DNA from: Escherichia coli 042
GTDB lineage: Bacteria; Pseudomonadota; Gammaproteobacteria; Enterobacterales; Enterobacteriaceae
Length of the DNA: 64,000 bases
Strand: one strand, 5' to 3'
NCBI RefSeq assembly: GCF_000027125.1
Contig: NC_017626.1
The position numbers and the translations under genes were made by a program. Of this stretch, positions 1 to 9,355 are shown in pieces. The notes beneath the pieces are model-generated. The model saw nothing but the letters and a program-made list of their open reading frames with translations. It did not search any database and had not been told where the DNA came from. Within the stretch, counting starts at the first letter, position 1. Each line of letters starts with the position of its first letter.

Positions 1-637
1 CCGCCAGGGCGGACTGATAACTTTTTATCCGGTAATGCCATCCTTGATCACTGTGGAGCAGCGGTTTCTCCCCTTCAGCAAGGCTTTCCAGCCCCTTATT
101 TAACATCCGCTTCACCAGCTCCTCTGTAGGCCTGCAGGCCGTTTCCCACGCCACGATTTCCCCGTTAAACAAATCAAGTATCGGGGACAGGTACAGTTTT
201 TGTCCGCCAGCCCTGAATTCGGTGATATCTGTCACCCATTTCTCACAGGGAGCTTCCGCTTTGAACTGCCGCTGAAGGATATTTTCTGCAGCGAGTCCCA
301 TATTTCCCCGGTAAGACCGGTATTTCTTCAGGCGCACAGGAGACTTCAGGCCGAGCTGTTGCATCAGTTTTCGCACTGTTTTGCCACTGAACTTAAGACC
401 TCTTTTCTGAAGCTCACAATGGATCCGCCGGTACCCATAACATCCCCGGTGTTCATGGAAGATGGAGGCTATGAGCTGTTTCACATCAGCATACTTGTCC
501 TTAGCCTTCTGCAGTGACAGCTGGTAGTACAGCGTGCTTCTGGCCAGCCCTGCAGCCTTTAACAGGTCAGACTGGCAGTGTCCGCACCTCAGGCTCCGGA
601 TGACTTTCGTTTTTTCTCCAGCTCCTGGCGCTTTTTT
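1..637 (-). CDS. IS3-family transposase OrfB (DDE integrase domain), 5' portion only; expressed by -1 frameshift from OrfA; 3' end outside window
   Basis: Manual -1 frame translation downstream of the slippery site is open to the window edge and shows an rve-type catalytic core. Confidence 0.7.
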
Positions 638-1110
638 TCCAGGAGATGCTCCTGCATGGCTTTCAGATATGCATTTTCTGCGCGAAGATAACGCAGCTCA
701 TTCTTCATCTCTTCCGGCGTCATGTTTGCCTCGTTTTCATGGGTATCATCAGAACGGGTCATGCTTTTCTCCTTCCTGCGCCTGATAAAGGCCTCATTAC
801 CAGATTTGCGGTAGCCTTTTATCCAGTTTTTAACCGTGTTGTGGCTGGGAATGTTAAACCGGGCAGCTACCCGGGGTAGAGACTCAGAATGCCCGAGAGC
901 ATAAAGAACCACGCAAAGTTTATCTTCAGGAGAATAGCTACGCTTGTGTCTGCAATCCAGTGCCCGAGGACCGTGAAGAAGAAAAAGATTAATCCAGTGT
1001 GAGAGGCTGGTGTGAGAAAGTTGAAAGAGTTTTGCCGTAGAAATGATGCCTGCATGACCAGCCAGGTAATGATTTACAGCGGCAAGTTTTACTTCAAATG
1101 AATGTTTCAT
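589..1110 (-). CDS. IS3-family transposase OrfA (HTH DNA-binding); ATG at 1108-1110 (track begins at an upstream GTG)
   Basis: 173 aa with HTH N-terminus and C-terminal leucine-zipper-like charged region; resembles IS150 OrfA as recalled. Confidence 0.8.
   Translation of the reverse strand: MKHSFEVKLAAVNHYLAGHAGIISTAKLFQLSHTSLSHWINLFLLHGPRALDCRHKRSYSPEDKLCVVLYALGHSESLPRVAARFNIPSHNTVKNWIKGYRKSGNEAFIRRRKEKSMTRSDDTHENEANMTPEEMKNELRYLRAENAYLKAMQEHLLEKKRQELEKKRKSSGA
631..638 (-). other. Programmed -1 ribosomal frameshift site (A AAA AAG) of the IS3-family transposase
   Basis: Plus strand CTTTTTTT = AAAAAAAG on the coding strand, at the OrfA/OrfB overlap. Confidence 0.6.
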
Positions 1111-1186
1111 AAACTGCACCTTCAGATGTCAGATTATGTCCAACATTTGGGGTGCAGTTCATACGCCGCATCCGGCAATAAATGAC

Positions 1187-1417
1187 TCAACGTTGTCCCG
1201 CTTCTGGTTTGCGCGATTTTTGCCAGTAAAAATGCTCGCGCAAACCTTCCGCCGACTCTTCCGCCACAGCACGCAATTCATCGCTGTCCGCTTCATGACG
1301 CAGTTGATGATCCACATTCTTTACCCACATAAATTCATGTCCTTTGTGCCCTGCCATGAGTTGTCCTGAGAACAGCGCACACGTTAATAAGACAACCGAT
1401 AACGCCTTCGTAAACAT
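1187..1417 (-). CDS. yncJ: DUF2554-family small secreted protein YncJ
   Basis: 76 aa ORF, N-terminal signal peptide (MFTKALSVVLLTCALFSGQLMA), ATG start; matches YncJ as recalled. Confidence 0.85.
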   Translation of the reverse strand: MFTKALSVVLLTCALFSGQLMAGHKGHEFMWVKNVDHQLRHEADSDELRAVAEESAEGLREHFYWQKSRKPEAGQR

Positions 1418-1638
1418 CCCGCCACCTTTTTCTCACCTTTTGCCGCTATGATGCCGATCGTTTCTTGAGGTTATTATTCAGTTTTGCAAATTAGCGCAAA
1501 GAAATTCTGGAATCTTCCTTCCTGATTTTGCATTGCATTCTGCCGTTGCGGCGATTAAGTGCTATTTTCGAGAAAATTACACACGGAGGTAAACAATAAT
1601 GTTTACTTTGTTGATATACTCAGCGGCAGGGAGGCGAT

Positions 1639-1815
1639 GTGAAACAAAGCGAGTTCAGACGTTGGCTCGAATCTCAGGGCGTCAATGTAGCAAATGGCAG
1701 CAACCATTTAAAACTCAGGTTTCACGGGAGGCGCAGTGTCATGCCGCGTCACCCCAGCGAAGAGATTAAAGAACCATTACGTAAAGCCATTCTGAAACAA
1801 CTCGGTTTGAGTTAA
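1639..1815 (+). CDS. hicA: HicA mRNA interferase toxin (GTG start)
   Basis: 58-codon ORF not in the track (below size cut-off): VKQSEFRRWLESQGVNVANGSNHLKLRFHGRRSVMPRHPSEEIKEPLRKAILKQLGLS; immediately upstream of hicB. Confidence 0.85.
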   Translation: MKQSEFRRWLESQGVNVANGSNHLKLRFHGRRSVMPRHPSEEIKEPLRKAILKQLGLS

Positions 1816-1839
1816 TCGCCAATTAAAAAGGTTAATGAC

Positions 1840-2277
<438 letters not shown>

Positions 2278-2355
2278 TAACAGTTAATGAAAAGTTGTCA
2301 TTTTTAACAACTGATATAGACTGCCGAATCACCTGCACATAATAACGATTCGATA

Positions 2356-3762
2356 ATGAAAAAATACCAGCAGCTTGCAGAACAATTACGCGAGCAGATT
2401 GCGTCGGGTATCTGGCAACCCGGAGATCGTTTGCCTTCGTTGCGTGACCAGGTGGCGCTTTCTGGCATGAGCTTTATGACTGTCAGCCATGCCTATCAGT
2501 TGCTCGAAAGTCAGGGATATATTATCGCGCGACCGCAGTCGGGTTATTACGTTGCGCCACAGGCAATAAAAATGCCGAAAGCGCCAGTCATTCCAGTCAC
2601 ACGAGATGAAGCAGTCGATATCAACACCTATATTTTTGATATGTTGCAGGCCAGTCGTGATCCGTCGGTAGTTCCGTTTGCCTCGGCCTTTCCCGACCCG
2701 CGACTTTTCCCCCTCCAACAACTAAACCGCTCGCTGGCGCAGGTAAGCAAAACCGCCACGGCGATGAGCGTGATTGAAAACTTACCGCCAGGAAACGCAG
2801 AACTGCGTCAGGCTATTGCTCGTCGCTATGCCTTACAGGGCATCACTATTTCTCCTGATGAAATTGTCATTACCGCCGGGGCGTTAGAGGCATTAAACCT
2901 CAGTTTACAAGCGGTAACGGAACCAGGCGATTGGGTGATAGTAGAGAATCCTTGTTTCTACGGCGCGTTGCAGGCGCTGGAGCGGTTACGGCTGAAGGCG
3001 TTATCGGTGGCGACGGATGTTAAAGAAGGGATCGATCTTCAGGCGCTGGAACTGGCGTTGCAGGAGTATCCGGTGAAAGCGTGCTGGCTGATGACTAATA
3101 GCCAGAATCCACTCGGATTTACCTTAACGCCGCAAAAAAAAGCACAACTGGTGGCGTTGCTCAATCAGTACAACGTAACGCTGATTGAAGATGACGTGTA
3201 CAGCGAACTTTATTTTGGACGGGAAAAACCGCTGCCTGCGAAAGCGTGGGATCGCCACGATGGTGTTTTGCATTGCTCTTCGTTTTCGAAATGTCTGGTG
3301 CCTGGTTTTCGTATTGGTTGGGTCGCCGCCGGAAAACATGCACGTAAAATTCAACGATTGCAGTTGATGAGTACGCTTTCCACCAGCTCACCGATGCAGC
3401 TTGCGCTGGTGGATTACCTTTCCACGCGCCGATACGACGCCCATCTTCGTCGCCTGCGTCGCCAGCTTGCGGAACGTAAACAACGTGCCTGGCAGGCACT
3501 GCTGCGTTATCTGCCTGCGGAAGTGAAAATTCATCATAATGACAGCGGTTATTTTCTCTGGCTGGAACTCCCCGCGCCGTTAGATGCGGGCGAATTAAGC
3601 CTGGCGGCACTGACGCATCATATCAGTATTGCGCCGGGTAAAATGTTTTCTACCGGTGAAAACTGGTCACGTTTTTTTCGTTTTAATACCGCGTGGCAGT
3701 GGGGAGAACGTGAAGAACAGGCGGTAAAACAATTAGGCAAATTTATTCAAGAACGGCTGTAA
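2356..3762 (+). CDS. ydcR: MocR/GntR-family transcriptional regulator fused to a PLP aminotransferase-like domain
   Basis: 468 aa; N-terminal GntR HTH, C-terminal fold-type I aminotransferase domain. Confidence 0.9.
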   Translation: MKKYQQLAEQLREQIASGIWQPGDRLPSLRDQVALSGMSFMTVSHAYQLLESQGYIIARPQSGYYVAPQAIKMPKAPVIPVTRDEAVDINTYIFDMLQASRDPSVVPFASAFPDPRLFPLQQLNRSLAQVSKTATAMSVIENLPPGNAELRQAIARRYALQGITISPDEIVITAGALEALNLSLQAVTEPGDWVIVENPCFYGALQALERLRLKALSVATDVKEGIDLQALELALQEYPVKACWLMTNSQNPLGFTLTPQKKAQLVALLNQYNVTLIEDDVYSELYFGREKPLPAKAWDRHDGVLHCSSFSKCLVPGFRIGWVAAGKHARKIQRLQLMSTLSTSSPMQLALVDYLSTRRYDAHLRRLRRQLAERKQRAWQALLRYLPAEVKIHHNDSGYFLWLELPAPLDAGELSLAALTHHISIAPGKMFSTGENWSRFFRFNTAWQWGEREEQAVKQLGKFIQERL

Positions 3763-4006
3763 TAGCGTTTAATTAAATTCCTCTCAGGTTGGGTAATATG
3801 AATTTCGAATAGCAGTCATATTTCCTAACTCCTTGTCTATACTCCAGAAGATAACCTTACAGACGGCATAATGCGCGGTAGCTCACAACCTGATTAAATT
3901 TTCTCAGGGGCGAAGGTGTGCCTGCAAGCCGCCGTCTATGGTTAAACAAGGAGATATTTTTACGGCACGGCGGCTGAACAATTAATTACGACAGGAGTAA
4001 GACCTT

Positions 4007-5152
4007 ATGAGCAAGACATTTGCCCGCAGCAGCCTGTGTGCGCTCACCATGACAATAATCACCGCTCATGCCGCCGAACCGCCTACCAATTTAGATAAAC
4101 CGGAAGGGCGACTGGATATTATCGCCTGGCCGGGATACATCGAACGCGGACAAACTGATAAACAATACGACTGGGTAACGCAATTCGAAAAAGAGACAGG
4201 CTGCGCGGTGAATGTGAAAACCGCCGCGACTTCCGATGAAATGGTCAGTCTGATGACCAAAGGGGGTTACGATCTGGTTACAGCATCCGGCGATGCCTCG
4301 CTGCGCCTGATTATGGGCAAACGCGTGCAGCCGATTAATACCGCATTGATTCCCAACTGGAAAACGCTCGATCCGCGCGTGGTTAAAGGCGACTGGTTTA
4401 ACGTTAGTGGCAAAGTTTATGGCACACCCTACCAATGGGGGCCGAACCTGTTGATGTACAACACTAAAACCTTCCCGACGCCGCCGGATAGCTGGCAAGT
4501 GGTCTTTGTTGAGCAGAATCTGCCGGACGGCAAGAGCAATAAAGGCCGCGTACAGGCCTATGATGGCCCTATCTACATTGCGGACGCTGCGTTGTTCGTT
4601 AAAGCCACTCAGCCGCAGTTGGGCATCAGCGATCCGTATCAACTCACCGAAGAACAGTACCAGGCGGTGCTGAAAGTGCTGCGCGATCAACACAGTTTGA
4701 TCCATCGCTACTGGCATGACACGACCGTGCAAATGAGCGATTTCAAAAACGAGGGTGTGGTTGCTTCCAGTGCCTGGCCCTATCAGGCCAACGCCCTGAA
4801 AGCCGAAGGCCAGCCTGTCGCTACCGTTTTCCCGAAAGAGGGCGTTACCGGTTGGGCTGACACCACCATGCTACATAGCGAAGCGAAACATCCGGTTTGC
4901 GCCTACAAATGGATGAACTGGTCATTAACGCCAAAAGTGCAGGGCGATGTGGCGGCCTGGTTTGGCTCGTTACCAGTAGTGCCGGAAGGGTGTAAAGCCA
5001 GTCCGTTATTAGGCGAGAAAGGTTGTGAAACAAACGGTTTTAACTATTTCGATAAAATCGCCTTCTGGAAAACGCCTATAGCAGAAGGGGGCAAGTTTTT
5101 TCCCTACAGTCGCTGGACGCAGGATTACATTGCCATTATGGGCGGTCGCTAA
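4007..5152 (+). CDS. ydcS: Periplasmic polyamine-binding protein of ABC transporter (PotD/PotF family)
   Basis: 381 aa with signal peptide; first gene of ydcSTUV-patD cluster. Confidence 0.9.
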   Translation: MSKTFARSSLCALTMTIITAHAAEPPTNLDKPEGRLDIIAWPGYIERGQTDKQYDWVTQFEKETGCAVNVKTAATSDEMVSLMTKGGYDLVTASGDASLRLIMGKRVQPINTALIPNWKTLDPRVVKGDWFNVSGKVYGTPYQWGPNLLMYNTKTFPTPPDSWQVVFVEQNLPDGKSNKGRVQAYDGPIYIADAALFVKATQPQLGISDPYQLTEEQYQAVLKVLRDQHSLIHRYWHDTTVQMSDFKNEGVVASSAWPYQANALKAEGQPVATVFPKEGVTGWADTTMLHSEAKHPVCAYKWMNWSLTPKVQGDVAAWFGSLPVVPEGCKASPLLGEKGCETNGFNYFDKIAFWKTPIAEGGKFFPYSRWTQDYIAIMGGR

Positions 5153-5169
5153 CTTCGCTGGGGTGTTTT

Positions 5170-6183
5170 ATGACGTACGCAGTGGAGTTTGACAACGTCT
5201 CGCGGTTGTACGGTGACGTGCGCGCAGTAGATGGCGTCAGTATTGCGATAAAAGATGGTGAATTCTTCTCTATGCTGGGGCCGTCCGGCTCCGGCAAAAC
5301 CACCTGCCTGCGCCTGATTGCTGGCTTCGAACAGCTTTCCGGCGGGGCTATCTCTATCTTTGGTAAACCCGCCAGCAATCTGCCACCGTGGGAGCGGGAC
5401 GTGAATACCGTCTTTCAGGACTACGCGCTATTTCCGCATATGTCGATTCTTGACAACGTGGCCTATGGGCTGATGGTCAAAGGCGTGAATAAAAAGCAGC
5501 GGCATGCGATGGCGCAAGAGGCGCTGGAGAAAGTGGCGTTGGGGTTTGTACAGCAACGTAAACCGTCACAACTTTCTGGTGGTCAGCGCCAACGGGTTGC
5601 TATTGCCAGAGCACTGGTGAATGAACCGCGCGTATTGCTGTTGGATGAACCGCTCGGCGCGCTGGATCTCAAATTGCGTGAGCAGATGCAACTTGAGCTG
5701 AAAAAGCTGCAACAGTCTCTCGGTATCACTTTTATCTTCGTTACCCACGATCAGGGCGAAGCGTTATCGATGTCCGATCGTGTTGCGGTTTTCAATAATG
5801 GACGCATTGAGCAGGTCGATTCCCCGCGTGACCTCTATATGCGCCCGCGCACGCCGTTTGTTGCCGGATTCGTCGGGACATCGAATGTTTTTGATGCACT
5901 GATGGCAGACAAACTTTGTGGCATGACGGGAAGCTTCGCCCTGCGACCGGAACATATCCGCTTCAACATCCCCGGCGAAGTGCAGGCCAATGGCACGATC
6001 CAGGCGGTGCAATATCAGGGCGCAGCGACTCGTTTTGAACTGAGACTGAACGGTGGTGAAAAACTGCTGGTGAGTCAGGCCAATATGACAGGCGAAGAAC
6101 TGCCTGCCACGCTCACGCCCGGACAACAAGTGATGGTTTCCTGGTCGCGTGATGTGATGGTGCCGCTGGTTGAGGAGAGGTGA
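5170..6183 (+). CDS. ydcT: ABC transporter ATP-binding protein (PotA-like)
   Basis: 337 aa; Walker A GPSGSGKTT, ABC signature LSGGQRQR, Walker B LLLDEP. Confidence 0.9.
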   Translation: MTYAVEFDNVSRLYGDVRAVDGVSIAIKDGEFFSMLGPSGSGKTTCLRLIAGFEQLSGGAISIFGKPASNLPPWERDVNTVFQDYALFPHMSILDNVAYGLMVKGVNKKQRHAMAQEALEKVALGFVQQRKPSQLSGGQRQRVAIARALVNEPRVLLLDEPLGALDLKLREQMQLELKKLQQSLGITFIFVTHDQGEALSMSDRVAVFNNGRIEQVDSPRDLYMRPRTPFVAGFVGTSNVFDALMADKLCGMTGSFALRPEHIRFNIPGEVQANGTIQAVQYQGAATRFELRLNGGEKLLVSQANMTGEELPATLTPGQQVMVSWSRDVMVPLVEER

Positions 6184-7125
6184 ATGGCGATGAACGTATT
6201 GCAATCACCTTCACGTCCAGGAGTTGGAAAGATATCCGGCTTTTTCTGGCGAAAACCAGGACTGGGGCTGTTTTTGTTGCTGCTTGGCCCGCTAATGTGG
6301 TTTGGCATTGTCTATTTCGGCTCGCTGCTAACGCTGTTATGGCAGGGCTTTTATACTTTTGACGATTTCACCATGTCGGTAACGCCGGAACTGACGCTGG
6401 CGAATATCCGTGCGCTGTTTAATCCGGCGAATTACGACATCATTCTCCGCACGCTGATTATGGCTGTGGCAGTCACTATCGCCAGCGCCATTCTGGCTTT
6501 TCCAATGGCGTGGTATATGGCGCGCTATACCAGCGGGAAAATGAAAGCGTTTTTTTATATCGCGGTAATGTTGCCGATGTGGGCGAGCTACATTGTTAAA
6601 GCCTATGCCTGGACGTTATTGCTGGCGAAAGATGGTGTGGCGCAGTGGTTTTTACAACATCTGGGGCTGGAACCACTGCTGACAGCGTTCCTTACATTAC
6701 CAGCGGTGGGCGGTAACACGCTGTCAACTTCCGGGCTGGGGCGCTTTCTGGTGTTTCTCTATATCTGGCTGCCGTTCATGATCCTGCCCGTGCAGGCGGC
6801 GCTTGAGCGTTTGCCGCCGTCATTGTTGCAGGCGTCGGCTGATCTTGGCGCACGTCCACGGCAAACCTTTCGCTATGTGGTACTGCCGCTGGCAATCCCG
6901 GGTATTGCCGCTGGCTCTATCTTTACCTTTTCACTCACACTGGGCGATTTTATCGTCCCGCAGCTGGTTGGCCCTCCAGGATATTTTATCGGCAATATGG
7001 TTTATTCCCAGCAGGGAGCGATTGGCAATATGCCGATGGCGGCGGCATTCACCCTGGTGCCGATTGTTCTCATCGCACTGTACCTGGCGTTCGTGAAACG
7101 TCTGGGAGCGTTCGATGCACTCTGA
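6184..7125 (+). CDS. ydcU: ABC transporter permease (PotB-like)
   Basis: 313 aa multi-pass membrane protein; start abuts ydcT stop. Confidence 0.9.
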
Positions 7126-7909
7126 ACGCGCACCGTTTTTCCTCAAACTGGCGGCCTGGGGCGGCGTGGTTTTCCTACATTTTCCCATTCTGATTATCGC
7201 CGCCTATGCGTTTAACACTGAAGATGCGGCGTTTAGTTTTCCACCGCAAGGCCTGACGCTGCGCTGGTTTAGCGTGGCAGCACAGCGCAGTGATATTCTT
7301 GAGGCTGTGACACTGTCACTTAAAGTGGCGGTGCTGGCGACATTAATTGCGCTGGTGTTAGGGACGCTGGCCGCTGCCGCGCTGTGGCGACGAGACTTTT
7401 TCGGCAAAAACGCCATTTCGCTGTTACTGCTGCTGCCCATTGCGCTGCCGGGTATTGTCACTGGTCTGGCGCTATTAACCGCCTTTAAAACCATCGATCT
7501 GGAGCCGGGATTTTTCACCATCGTGGTCGGTCATGCGACTTTTTGCGTAGTGGTGGTGTTTAACAATGTCATCGCCCGTTTTCGCCGCACCTCGTGCAGT
7601 CTGGTTGAGGCGTCAATGGATCTTGGGGCCAATGGCTGGCAAACCTTCCGCTACGTAGTGTTGCCGAATCTCAGTTCGGCGCTACTGGCAGGAGGAATGC
7701 TGGCGTTTGCCTTGTCGTTCGATGAAATCATCGTGACGACCTTTACGGCAGGTCATGAACGAACGTTACCGTTGTGGTTGCTCAATCAGCTTGGGCGACC
7801 GCGTGATGTACCGGTAACCAACGTGGTGGCACTGCTGGTTATGTTGGTAACAACCTTGCCGATCCTGGGAGCCTGGTGGCTAACCCGCGAAGGCGACAAT
7901 GGTCAATAA
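7115..7909 (+). CDS. ydcV: ABC transporter permease (PotC-like)
   Basis: 264 aa membrane protein, overlaps ydcU by 11 nt. Confidence 0.9.
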
Positions 7910-7930
7910 CCACTGATACAGGAATATGCT

Positions 7931-9355
7931 ATGCAACATAAGTTACTGATTAACGGAGAACTGGTTAGCGGCGAAGGGGAGAAACAGCCTGTCTATAATC
8001 CGGCAACGGGGGAAGTTTTACTGGAGATTGCCGAGGCATCTGCAGAGCAGGTCGATGCCGCTGTTCGTGCAGCAGATGCAGCATTTGCCGAATGGGGGCA
8101 AACCACGCCGAAAGCGCGTGCGGAATGCCTGCTGAAACTGGCGGATGTAATCGAAGAAAATGGTCAAGTTTTTGCCGAACTGGAGTCCCGTAACTGTGGC
8201 AAACCGCTGCATAGTGCGTTCAATGATGAAATTCCGGCGATTGTCGATGTCTTTCGCTTTTTCGCCGGAGCAGCTCGCTGCCTGAATGGTCTGGCGGCAG
8301 GTGAATATCTTGAAGGTCATACTTCGATGATCCGTCGCGATCCGTTGGGGGTCGTGGCTTCGATCGCACCGTGGAATTATCCGCTGATGATGGCTGCGTG
8401 GAAACTGGCTCCGGCGCTGGCGGCAGGGAATTGCGTAGTGCTCAAACCATCAGAAATTACCCCGCTGACAGCGTTGAAGTTGGCAGAGCTGGCGAAAGAT
8501 ATCTTCCCAGCTGGCGTGATTAACGTGCTGTTTGGCAGAGGCAAAACGGTGGGCGATCCGCTGACCGGACATCCCAAAGTACGGATGGTGTCACTGACGG
8601 GCTCTATCGCCACTGGGGAACACATCATCAGCCATACCGCGCCGTCCATAAAGCTTACTCATATGGAACTTGGAGGCAAAGCGCCAGTGATAGTTTTTGA
8701 TGATGCGGATATTGAAGCGGTGGTCGAAGGTGTACGTACTTTTGGCTATTACAATGCCGGACAGGATTGTACTGCGGCTTGTCGGATCTACGCGCAAAAA
8801 GGTATTTACGATACGCTGGTGGAAAAACTCGGTGCTGCAGTGGCAACGTTAAAATCTGGTGCGCCGGATGACGAGTCTACGGAGCTTGGACCTTTAAGCT
8901 CACTGGCGCATCTCGATCGCGTCAGCAAAGCAGTAGAAGAGGCGAAAGCGACAGGGCACATCAAAGTGATCACTGGCGGTGAAAAGCGCAAGGGTAATGG
9001 CTATTACTATGCGCCGACGCTACTGGCTGGCGCATTACAGGACGATGCCATCGTGCAAAAAGAGGTATTTGGTCCGGTAGTGAGTGTTACGCTCTTTGAC
9101 AATGAAGAACAGGTGGTAAACTGGGCAAATGACAGCCAGTACGGACTTGCATCCTCGGTATGGACGAAAGATGTGGGCAGGGCGCATCGCGTCAGCGCAC
9201 GGCTACAATATGGTTGTACCTGGGTCAATACCCATTTCATGCTGGTAAGTGAAATGCCGCACGGTGGGCAGAAACTTTCTGGTTACGGCAAGGATATGTC
9301 ACTTTATGGGCTGGAGGATTACACCGTCGTCCGCCACGTCATGGTTAAACATTAA
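7931..9355 (+). CDS. patD: Gamma-aminobutyraldehyde dehydrogenase (aldehyde dehydrogenase family)
   Basis: 474 aa; ALDH family features (ELGGK, catalytic Cys region GQDCTAA). Confidence 0.9.

Follow-up and report, generated by a model that had tools for sequence, protein, structure and literature searches.

The first 1,161 nucleotides of the window, by which we mean the whole stretch of 64,000 nucleotides of Escherichia coli 042 DNA that was analysed, are, judged by their sequence, an ordinary copy of the already described insertion sequence IS1397, from which they differ in nothing of substance. The explanation of this region that we consider very probably correct is that a recent and visibly intact IS1397 lies in the loop of a REP (palindromic unit), that its transposase OrfAB is made by frameshifting, and that a hairpin at its left end blocks read-through expression.

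Identity of the element

The initial annotation stated that the window opens inside an IS3-family, IS150-like element, and it named neither IS1397 nor the REP half in the flank. The first part of this description holds, and the element extends from the window edge to a1161 on the minus strand (Table 1). When 5,426 complete E. coli genomes were searched by megablast with positions 1-1161, 1,721 of them had matches, 5,504 in total, and all of these matches carry the RefSeq feature name 'IS3-like element IS1397 family transposase', with identities of 99.1-99.8%. In some strains the copy number of IS1397 reaches 32 to 40 or more. The copy in strain PCN033 has the full length of 1,432 bp and is the same as the window copy at 1159 of 1161 nucleotides, the 2 differences being synonymous. 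The window holds 81% of IS1397, and the last 271 bp, comprising the end of orfB with the catalytic residue E391 and the right inverted repeat (IRR), lie outside it. What the window copy shares with IS1397 is a nucleotide identity of about 99.8% to annotated copies, the same OrfA and OrfAB, the length of 1,432 bp (in full copies), the insertion into a REP loop, and probably the 3-bp duplication, one copy of which is in the window.

The left and right terminal repeats of full IS1397 copies match at 21 of 25 positions, and the ends are TG..CA. On the minus strand the tip at a1161 reads 5'-TGAACTGCACCCC, and the right end of IS1397, in minus-strand sense, reads ...GGGGTTCAGTTCA. The terminal criterion of the IS3 family is 5'-TG...CA-3', and the left inverted repeat (IRL) in the window begins with TGAAC (1161-1157). 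These TG..CA ends and a TTGGACA/TTAGACA core are kept in 50 or more relatives.

Table 1 Features of the IS1397 copy and of its flank (window positions)
Feature	Positions	Strand	Description
IS1397, nucleotides 1-1161 of 1,432	1..1161	-	Left end, orfA, and 5' three quarters of orfB
orfB frame (-1 relative to orfA)	1..631	-	HTH_21 and rve; open to the window edge
Codons of putative catalytic residues D295 and D355 of orfB	229-227; 49-47	-	Encoded in the window
orfA	589..1110	-	ATG at 1110, 173 aa, TGA 591-589; two HTH regions and a leucine-zipper-like C-terminus
Candidate frameshift-stimulator hairpin	590..627	-	38 nt, starts 4 nt past the heptamer
Slippery heptamer A AAA AAG	631..637	-	In phase with orfA, 0 frame GAA AAA AAG (639-631)
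SD-like AGGAG	649..653	-	12 nt before the heptamer; fits the 6-17 nt rule of PMC4066793
Leader hairpin (predicted)	1108..1163	-	13-bp outer stem and inner 8-bp stem 1125-1145
Shine-Dalgarno AAGGUG of orfA	1117..1122	-	6 nt before AUG, inside the 3' arm of the hairpin
IRL, left terminal inverted repeat	1137..1161	-	TGAACTGCACCCCAAATGTTGGACA; agrees with IRR of full copies, TGAACTGAACCCCAAAACCTGGACA
Target duplication, one copy of the expected 3 bp	1162..1164		TAC on + / GTA in IS orientation; partner outside the window
Right half of split REP (palindromic unit)	1162..1176		TACGCCGCATCCGGC
yncJ, intact	1187..1417	-	Co-oriented with orfA, directly upstream of the IS left end

orfA, orfB, and assignment to the IS150 group

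In a 99.8% identical copy, the CDS start annotated in RefSeq is the same orfA ATG, and over 1,000 contigs encode exactly this OrfA protein of 173 aa. No stop interrupts the -1 frame between about position 690 and position 1, and the conceptual OrfAB within the window has 370 aa with 0 stops; stops in the OrfB frame, which had been named as a finding that would speak against the initial annotation, are absent from the heptamer to base 1. For E391 and for K398, seven residues after it as the DD(35)E pattern with K/R of the IS3 family requires, the source is the full copy with 99.8% identity, in which D355 and E391 are spaced by 35 residues. Pfam recognizes HTH_28/HTH_Tnp_1 in OrfA and HTH_21 and rve in OrfB (rve 1.3e-16), and the conceptual fusion scores 387 bits with the NCBIfam model NF033516 (transpos_IS3), for which the cut-off is 160.

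IS150 is the K-12 insertion sequence nearest to the element in the window: the OrfB sequence is 52% identical to InsK of IS150, 32% to InsF of IS3, and about 23% to InsD of IS2. An IS3-family match was present, and the Pfam, NCBIfam, and OrfB results agree with the family and group that had been proposed. By these sequence criteria, and by the long OrfA of about 170 aa expected in this group, the assignment to the IS150 group is correct within a comparison that covered IS150, IS3, and IS2.

With IS150 (insJ/insK of K-12) the element has in common an OrfA of 173 aa, the 52% identical OrfB, the A AAA AAG heptamer, and similar terminal repeats (TGTACTGCACCC..TTGGAC). It differs in its OrfA, which is only 27% identical to InsJ over the full length, and in its leader, since that of IS150 has only a short CCATTT/AAATGG stem in which the tip is not included. 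To our knowledge, IS150 has not been reported to be REP-specific.

Predicted programmed frameshift

The DDE transposase OrfAB would be made through a programmed -1 frameshift at A AAA AAG. The initial annotation had linked OrfA and OrfB by this heptamer, and it is indeed found at 637-631 in the correct phase, followed by an open -1 frame. A fusion made at this site has 449 aa and is, residue for residue, the IS1397 transposase deposited at NCBI on 71 contigs; a fusion made at a second A-run corresponds to 1 deposited NCBI protein. The match of the fusion to the NCBI protein is an agreement with annotation practice, and the frameshifting itself is a prediction from the sequence.

Signals for frameshifting are described as an SD-like motif 6-17 nt upstream and/or a hairpin 4-10 nt downstream of X_XXZ_ZZN (PMC4066793). 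IS1397 has this layout, with A_AAA_AAG in phase, AGGAG at 12 nt, and a hairpin at +4. The candidate stimulator hairpin has a predicted dG of -13.5 and a z of -2.7, and 1 of 200 shuffled sequences was equally stable; in a comparison with relatives it was not conserved. The heptamer A_AAA_AAG was found in phase in 39 of 52 distinct relatives, and an SD-like motif at a matching distance was found in 29 of 42. In the relatives and in IS150, the heptamer is located within the conserved codons ...YLKKL, with GGAG about 12 nt upstream. IS1397 is unlike them in that the codons homologous to these, YLKA (669-658), do not form a slippery site, and its SD-like motif and heptamer are found 27 nt farther downstream.

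Insertion into a REP between rlhA and yncJ

IS1397 inserts specifically into REPs, according to PMC1525189, which cites Clement 1999 and Wilde 2001 and 2003. The sequences at this site point to the same behaviour, as the REP palindrome is split exactly in its loop. Between rlhA and yncJ, K-12 and strain C4 carry an intact REP, GCCGGGTAAGGCGTTACGCCGCATCCGGC, and their empty sites read GGCGTTACGCCG; the half on the rlhA side of the intact site is GGCCGGGTAAGGCGT, and the other half adjoins the tip of the element in the window. The element inserted into the loop of this REP, between the convergent genes rlhA (ydcP) and yncJ, presumably with duplication of 3 bp (TAC).

The insertion point falls between the two stop codons, 66 bp from that of rlhA and 22 bp from that of yncJ, and neither gene is interrupted. 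For the distance from the terminus to the yncJ stop the initial annotation had given about 26 bp, which is close to the 25 bp (1162-1186) counted between the tip at 1161 and the stop codon at 1189-1187. Its placement of ydcP there in K-12 was confirmed, with ydcP (now rlhA) on the other side of yncJ. As to its question whether ydcP is disrupted, the gene is not disrupted in the comparator strains, where the insertion point falls in the interval past its stop given above.

Positions 1162-9000 of the window are 100% identical to strain C4 and others, and C4 has the intact REP without the IS. Because strains with 100% identical flanks keep an intact REP, the insertion is, on this sequence comparison, recent. 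Among the 5,426 complete E. coli genomes, none was found with the junction of IS, yncJ, and intact hicAB. Only strain E7-1N7 has an IS at the same REP, and there it is a full copy in the same orientation, with GTA on both sides and rlhA intact; this IS is a variant with 2.4% divergence, and hicAB is mostly deleted in E7-1N7. The copy in PCN033 likewise splits a canonical REP, GCCGGATGCGGC-GTA-AACGCCTTATCCGGCCTAC, with GTA on both sides. Most relatives have a target duplication of 3-4 bp, as do E7-1N7 and PCN033 with their 3-bp GTA. From these other strains we infer the intactness of the window copy, the second TAC, and the junction with rlhA, the other end of the element being beyond the window.

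ISKpn1 and ISPsy8, two REP-targeting members of the IS3 family, resemble IS1397 in that they insert at the symmetry axis of the REP hairpin with a 3-bp direct repeat (PMC1525189); they differ in having other hosts and other REP types, and they are likened here by description. One of the relatives studied below, L051 from P. syringae, may be ISPsy8-like.

Two parts of this account have rivals. Instead of a simple intact insertion, the window could hold an element truncated beyond the window edge, or the product of an IS-mediated rearrangement, so that the far side is not rlhA/ydcP. The window does start inside the element, the junction of IS, yncJ, and hicAB is absent from all complete E. coli genomes searched, and the high copy number in some strains favours recombination between copies. 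Against these points, the visible 1,161 bp contain no stops and only 2 synonymous differences from an active-looking copy, rlhA adjoins the REP in strains with 100% identical flanks, and E7-1N7 has a full copy at this very site with rlhA intact, which makes truncation or rearrangement very unlikely. For OrfAB, the rival is RNA polymerase slippage during transcription on the seven A (638-632), or slippage at G AAA AAA C (616-609). In IS1447, which is also a member of the IS3 family, a run of seven A was enough to cause transcriptional slippage (PMC6211511), the insertion of one A yields the same protein as a -1 shift, and the fusion at the second A-run exists once at NCBI. However, the phase of the heptamer is exactly that needed for tandem tRNA-Lys slippage, and the SD-like motif and hairpin are spaced as in a ribosomal frameshift signal. 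The same heptamer is also reported, in PMC4066793, to direct ribosomal frameshifting in IS150, a proven case stimulated by a stem-loop (Vogele et al. 1991). The second run, G AAA AAA, re-pairs poorly in the P site and has a single deposited protein, compared with 71 contigs for the first site. We therefore regard slippage at either run as unlikely and ribosomal frameshifting at A AAA AAG as the better explanation.

A predicted hairpin at the left end covers the orfA ribosome-binding site

The inverted pair that had been noted at 1112-1160 is exact, consisting of AACTGCACC (1112-1120) and GGTGCAGTT (1151-1159). A repeat finder extended it to arms of 12 nt (1109-1120 and 1151-1162) that are 92% complementary and 30 nt apart. 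The RNA fold of the left end has a predicted energy of -30.6 kcal/mol and a z of -4.4, and none of 200 shuffled sequences was as stable. In the outer stem, 2 nucleotides of the flank and nucleotides 1-11 of the IS pair with GGUGCAGUUUAUG, which contains the Shine-Dalgarno sequence and the start codon of orfA, so that both GGUG and AUG lie inside the stem. In the calculations, opening the region from the Shine-Dalgarno sequence to the AUG (1122-1105) costs 16-18 kcal/mol in transcripts that come from yncJ or the flank, as opposed to 6-8 in transcripts that start after about nucleotide 10 of the IS. Opening energy was used instead of per-nucleotide accessibility of the Shine-Dalgarno sequence, which is uninformative since a weak local stem covers GGUG too.

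No sigma-70-like promoter was found in a promoter scan of positions 500-1700, and a circle-junction promoter, inspected by hand, was unconvincing. An Rfam search of positions 1-1500 gave no match.

Conservation of the hairpin among relatives

Relatives were collected as 80 loci with 38-57% amino acid identity from contigs of one genome per species, their tips and start codons were located, and 52 distinct leaders were obtained. A tblastn search against plasmids yielded no relatives of intermediate identity. In 51 of the 52 leaders, an inverted complement of the terminal repeat, containing the Shine-Dalgarno sequence, comes after the repeat and ahead of the start codon, and in 51 of the 52 relatives z is below -2. 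The mean z of the leaders is -6.8, and that of the right ends is -0.5; because the right ends average this value, a terminal repeat does not by itself bring the hairpin with it. Nucleotides -14 to -5 are on average 86% paired in the relatives, and 42 of the 52 leaders have a run of at least four T ahead of the start codon.

The sequences of the stem vary between lineages, and the pairing of the arms is maintained. Cognate arms pair with -26.9 kcal/mol compared with -19.8 kcal/mol for permuted arms, and none of 10,000 permutations reached the observed value. In a fold-registered alignment, both partners vary in 12 of 23 pairs, and 103 compensatory cells were counted compared with 29 +/- 7 after shuffling (0 of 500 shuffles reached the observed count); this covariation signal is lost when the partners are slid. 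The fold-registered alignment, which uses the own fold of each sequence, leans towards structure, and the test of cognate and non-cognate arms is independent support. A plain MAFFT alignment of the leaders misplaced the 3' arm and was left out of the pair counts. Stem columns 2 and 7 often hold G.U pairs. The excess of G.U on the sense strand is modest (74 vs 43), and the sense strand is the more stable one in 33 of 52 leaders. At the level of sequence, these results are evidence of selection on the left-end hairpin in this IS clade.

A hairpin at both ends of the IS was also considered and was rejected: IRR of IS1397 has a small AACTGAA/TTCAGTT pair (z -2.1), and the relatives have none (mean -0.5).

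The initial annotation had offered either a transposase binding site or a hairpin for the inverted pair. The hairpin fits better, and a binding site fits less well since the ribosome-binding site of orfA lies within the partner arm, the arms covary, and the right end has no conserved hairpin. A more specific form of the DNA-level reading is that the pair is a palindromic site at which OrfA or OrfAB binds the IRL and an inverted internal copy of it, for instance to repress its own gene, or a cruciform with a role in transposition. In favour of this, the transposase has to bind the terminal repeat, which forms the 5' arm, covariation like that of paired RNA would also arise if a single protein read both half-sites, the asymmetry between sense and antisense is only modest, and recognition of DNA structure is conceivable for an element that targets hairpin-forming DNA. 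Opposed to this are the right end, which has the same repeat without a conserved partner arm (see the mean z values above), the frequent G.U pairs at the two stem columns, and the 3' arm, which always holds the Shine-Dalgarno sequence, abuts the start codon, and mostly comes with the T-run, features that are sensible for an RNA and not for a binding site. A palindromic protein site or a cruciform thus appears improbable to us. That the pair is a chance repeat without function is hardly credible: although only 9 bp are exact in the one sequence, its z value and the retention of the hairpin with compensatory changes in all relatives except one already contradict chance. The hairpin formed in RNA is the reading that we develop below.

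Proposed role of the left-end hairpin

In the model that we propose, the hairpin most likely silences or terminates read-through transcripts, which here would come from yncJ. We infer that it acts at the RNA level and blocks read-through expression. An IS that inserts into the loop of a REP or terminator splits the host hairpin and would therefore receive transcription from the upstream gene, in this case yncJ. In a transcript that arrives from outside, which at this site means from yncJ (same strand, 25 bp upstream), both arms would be present and the orfA ribosome-binding site would be locked up. A transcript that starts inside the element and lacks the 5' arm would be translatable. The model depends on such an internal start, for which the promoter scan gave no candidate; the poor U-tract of IS1397 and the modest strand asymmetry are two further weaknesses of it. 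Most of the relatives have a U-run after the stem, at which transcripts from outside would also terminate. Termination at the left end is plausible only for these relatives and not for IS1397, since the stem of IS1397 is followed by no more than UUUAU, and a scan of positions 500-1700 gave 0 terminators.

Fold-back inhibition has reportedly been described for IS10/IS50 by Mahillon and Chandler in 1998. At the left end of IS200, structures sequester the Shine-Dalgarno sequence or stop impinging transcription (PMC4513863). The likeness to IS200 consists in an inverted repeat at the left end with its 3' arm over the transposase ribosome-binding site, proposed to neutralise transcription from outside (PMC4513863). 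IS200 and IS10/IS50 differ from IS1397 in belonging to other IS families with unrelated sequences. The feature that is predicted for the IS1397 clade in particular is a single long hairpin in which the terminal repeat itself is the 5' arm.

Targeting of hairpin loops among relatives

For 37 distinct insertions of relatives, both flanks were available, and when the IS and one copy of the duplication were removed, a hairpin was rebuilt in most of them, its loop containing or adjoining the 3-4 bp that are duplicated. Many of the rebuilt target hairpins consist of an A-tract, stem, loop, stem, and T-tract and are terminator-like, and those of Pseudomonas marginalis look like REPs. The own flanks pair with -22.2 kcal/mol and permuted flanks with -13.0 kcal/mol, and 0 of 10,000 permutations reached the observed value. 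In the literature searched, itself a partial coverage, no description of this wider pattern of terminator-loop targeting was found.

The comparison suggests a wider preference for the loops of hairpins, including terminator-like hairpins, with the REP targeting of IS1397 as one instance. It is possible, and we put this forward only tentatively, that a strategy is shared across the clade, in which IS150-group relatives from Firmicutes to Proteobacteria insert in the loops of REPs and terminator-like stems, and the left-end hairpin that they carry, usually with a U-run behind it, replaces the destroyed terminator and insulates the transposase gene from the gene upstream. A bolder version, in which DNA in hairpin form is what the transposase recognises, both in the target and at the left end of the element, is conceivable.

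At the level of the strain, the insertion in the window is a matter of routine mobile-element annotation, and it is usable as a strain marker, being absent from strains with identical flanks. The splitting of the shared REP may affect the 3' ends of the yncJ and rlhA transcripts. The by-products of the comparison are of modest specialist interest; the broader preference for loops, if true, would account both for the rarity of gene disruption by these elements and for their need to be shielded from read-through.

Insertion sites of IS1397 and its relatives

Among the 5,426 E. coli genomes, strain E7-1N7 had the only complete genome carrying an IS at the rlhA-yncJ REP, the site occupied by IS1397 in the window, and the two insertions are identical in position, orientation, and, for the one copy of it that lies in the window, GTA duplication. 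The E7-1N7 locus diverges from the window by 2.4% in the IS and 2.8% in the flank, and all that is left of its hicA/hicB genes is a remnant of hicB.

A hairpin loop was also the insertion site of IS1397 relatives, whose transposases share 38-57% amino acid identity with that of IS1397 (fetched loci L008, L012, L016, L018-L020, L023, L029, L030, L032, L035, L039, L040, L042, L044, L045, L066, L070, L071, L075, L083, and L085). Their hosts were Bacillaceae, Paenibacillus, Pseudomonas, Halomonas, Ensifer, and Massilia. Once the IS was taken out in silico together with one copy of the 3-4 bp duplication, a strong stem-loop was rebuilt from the flanks with the duplication at its loop, often terminator-like in consisting of an A-tract, a stem, and a T-tract. 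The relatives' own flanks paired at -22.2 kcal/mol, whereas permuted flanks gave -13.0 kcal/mol, and none of 10,000 permutations reached the own-flank value.

Copy number and plasmid occurrence

The copy number of IS1397 ranges widely across E. coli genomes, with a median of 2 places per carrier genome, 32 places in strain SK0189, and at least 40 in strain BH100 (hits H8, H30/H44). Only 7 of 5,504 places were plasmid-borne. A search of plasmids for relatives at 60-95% identity found none, and the nearest plasmid-borne OrfA relative, at 35% identity, belongs to an unnamed IS3-family element that adjoins sta1, a heat-stable enterotoxin gene.

Features of IS1397, its relatives, and the E7-1N7 locus
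Feature	Location	Remark
IS at the rlhA-yncJ REP	L001 4728-6159	E7-1N7
hicB remnant	L001 6580-6657	E7-1N7; 78 nt
Unnamed IS3-family element	L004 1495-2840	plasmid pRHB16-C13_4
Right end with the inverted pair AACTGAA/TTCAGTT	L005 2895-2948	IS1397 copy of strain PCN033; outside the window
A_AAA_AAG in YLKKL codons	L086 3160-3175	IS150
YLKA codons	window 658-669, minus strand	IS1397
AGGAG-12 nt-A_AAA_AAG cassette	window 631-653, minus strand	IS1397

Right end and frameshift cassette

At the right end of IS1397, the small inverted pair (z -2.1) overlaps the stop codon of orfB. The terminal repeats IRL and IRR differ at position 8 (C/A), and each partner arm carries the matching base. A right-end hairpin was sought in the relatives and none was found (mean z -0.5).

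The frameshift cassette of IS1397 is shifted. In IS150 and the relatives, A_AAA_AAG falls within the codons for a conserved YLKKL, and a GGAG precedes it by about 12 nt, whereas IS1397 has a non-slippery YLKA at the homologous position and carries its cassette 27 nt downstream, where it is accompanied by a hairpin that the relatives lack.

Five relatives, four from Pseudomonas asuensis (L006, L007, L009, and L010) and one from P. oryzihabitans (L046), carry one fused ORF, 451-463 amino acids long. Since these elements combine a fused ORF with the lack of any in-phase slippery heptamer, they appear, judging from their sequences, to make their transposase without frameshifting.
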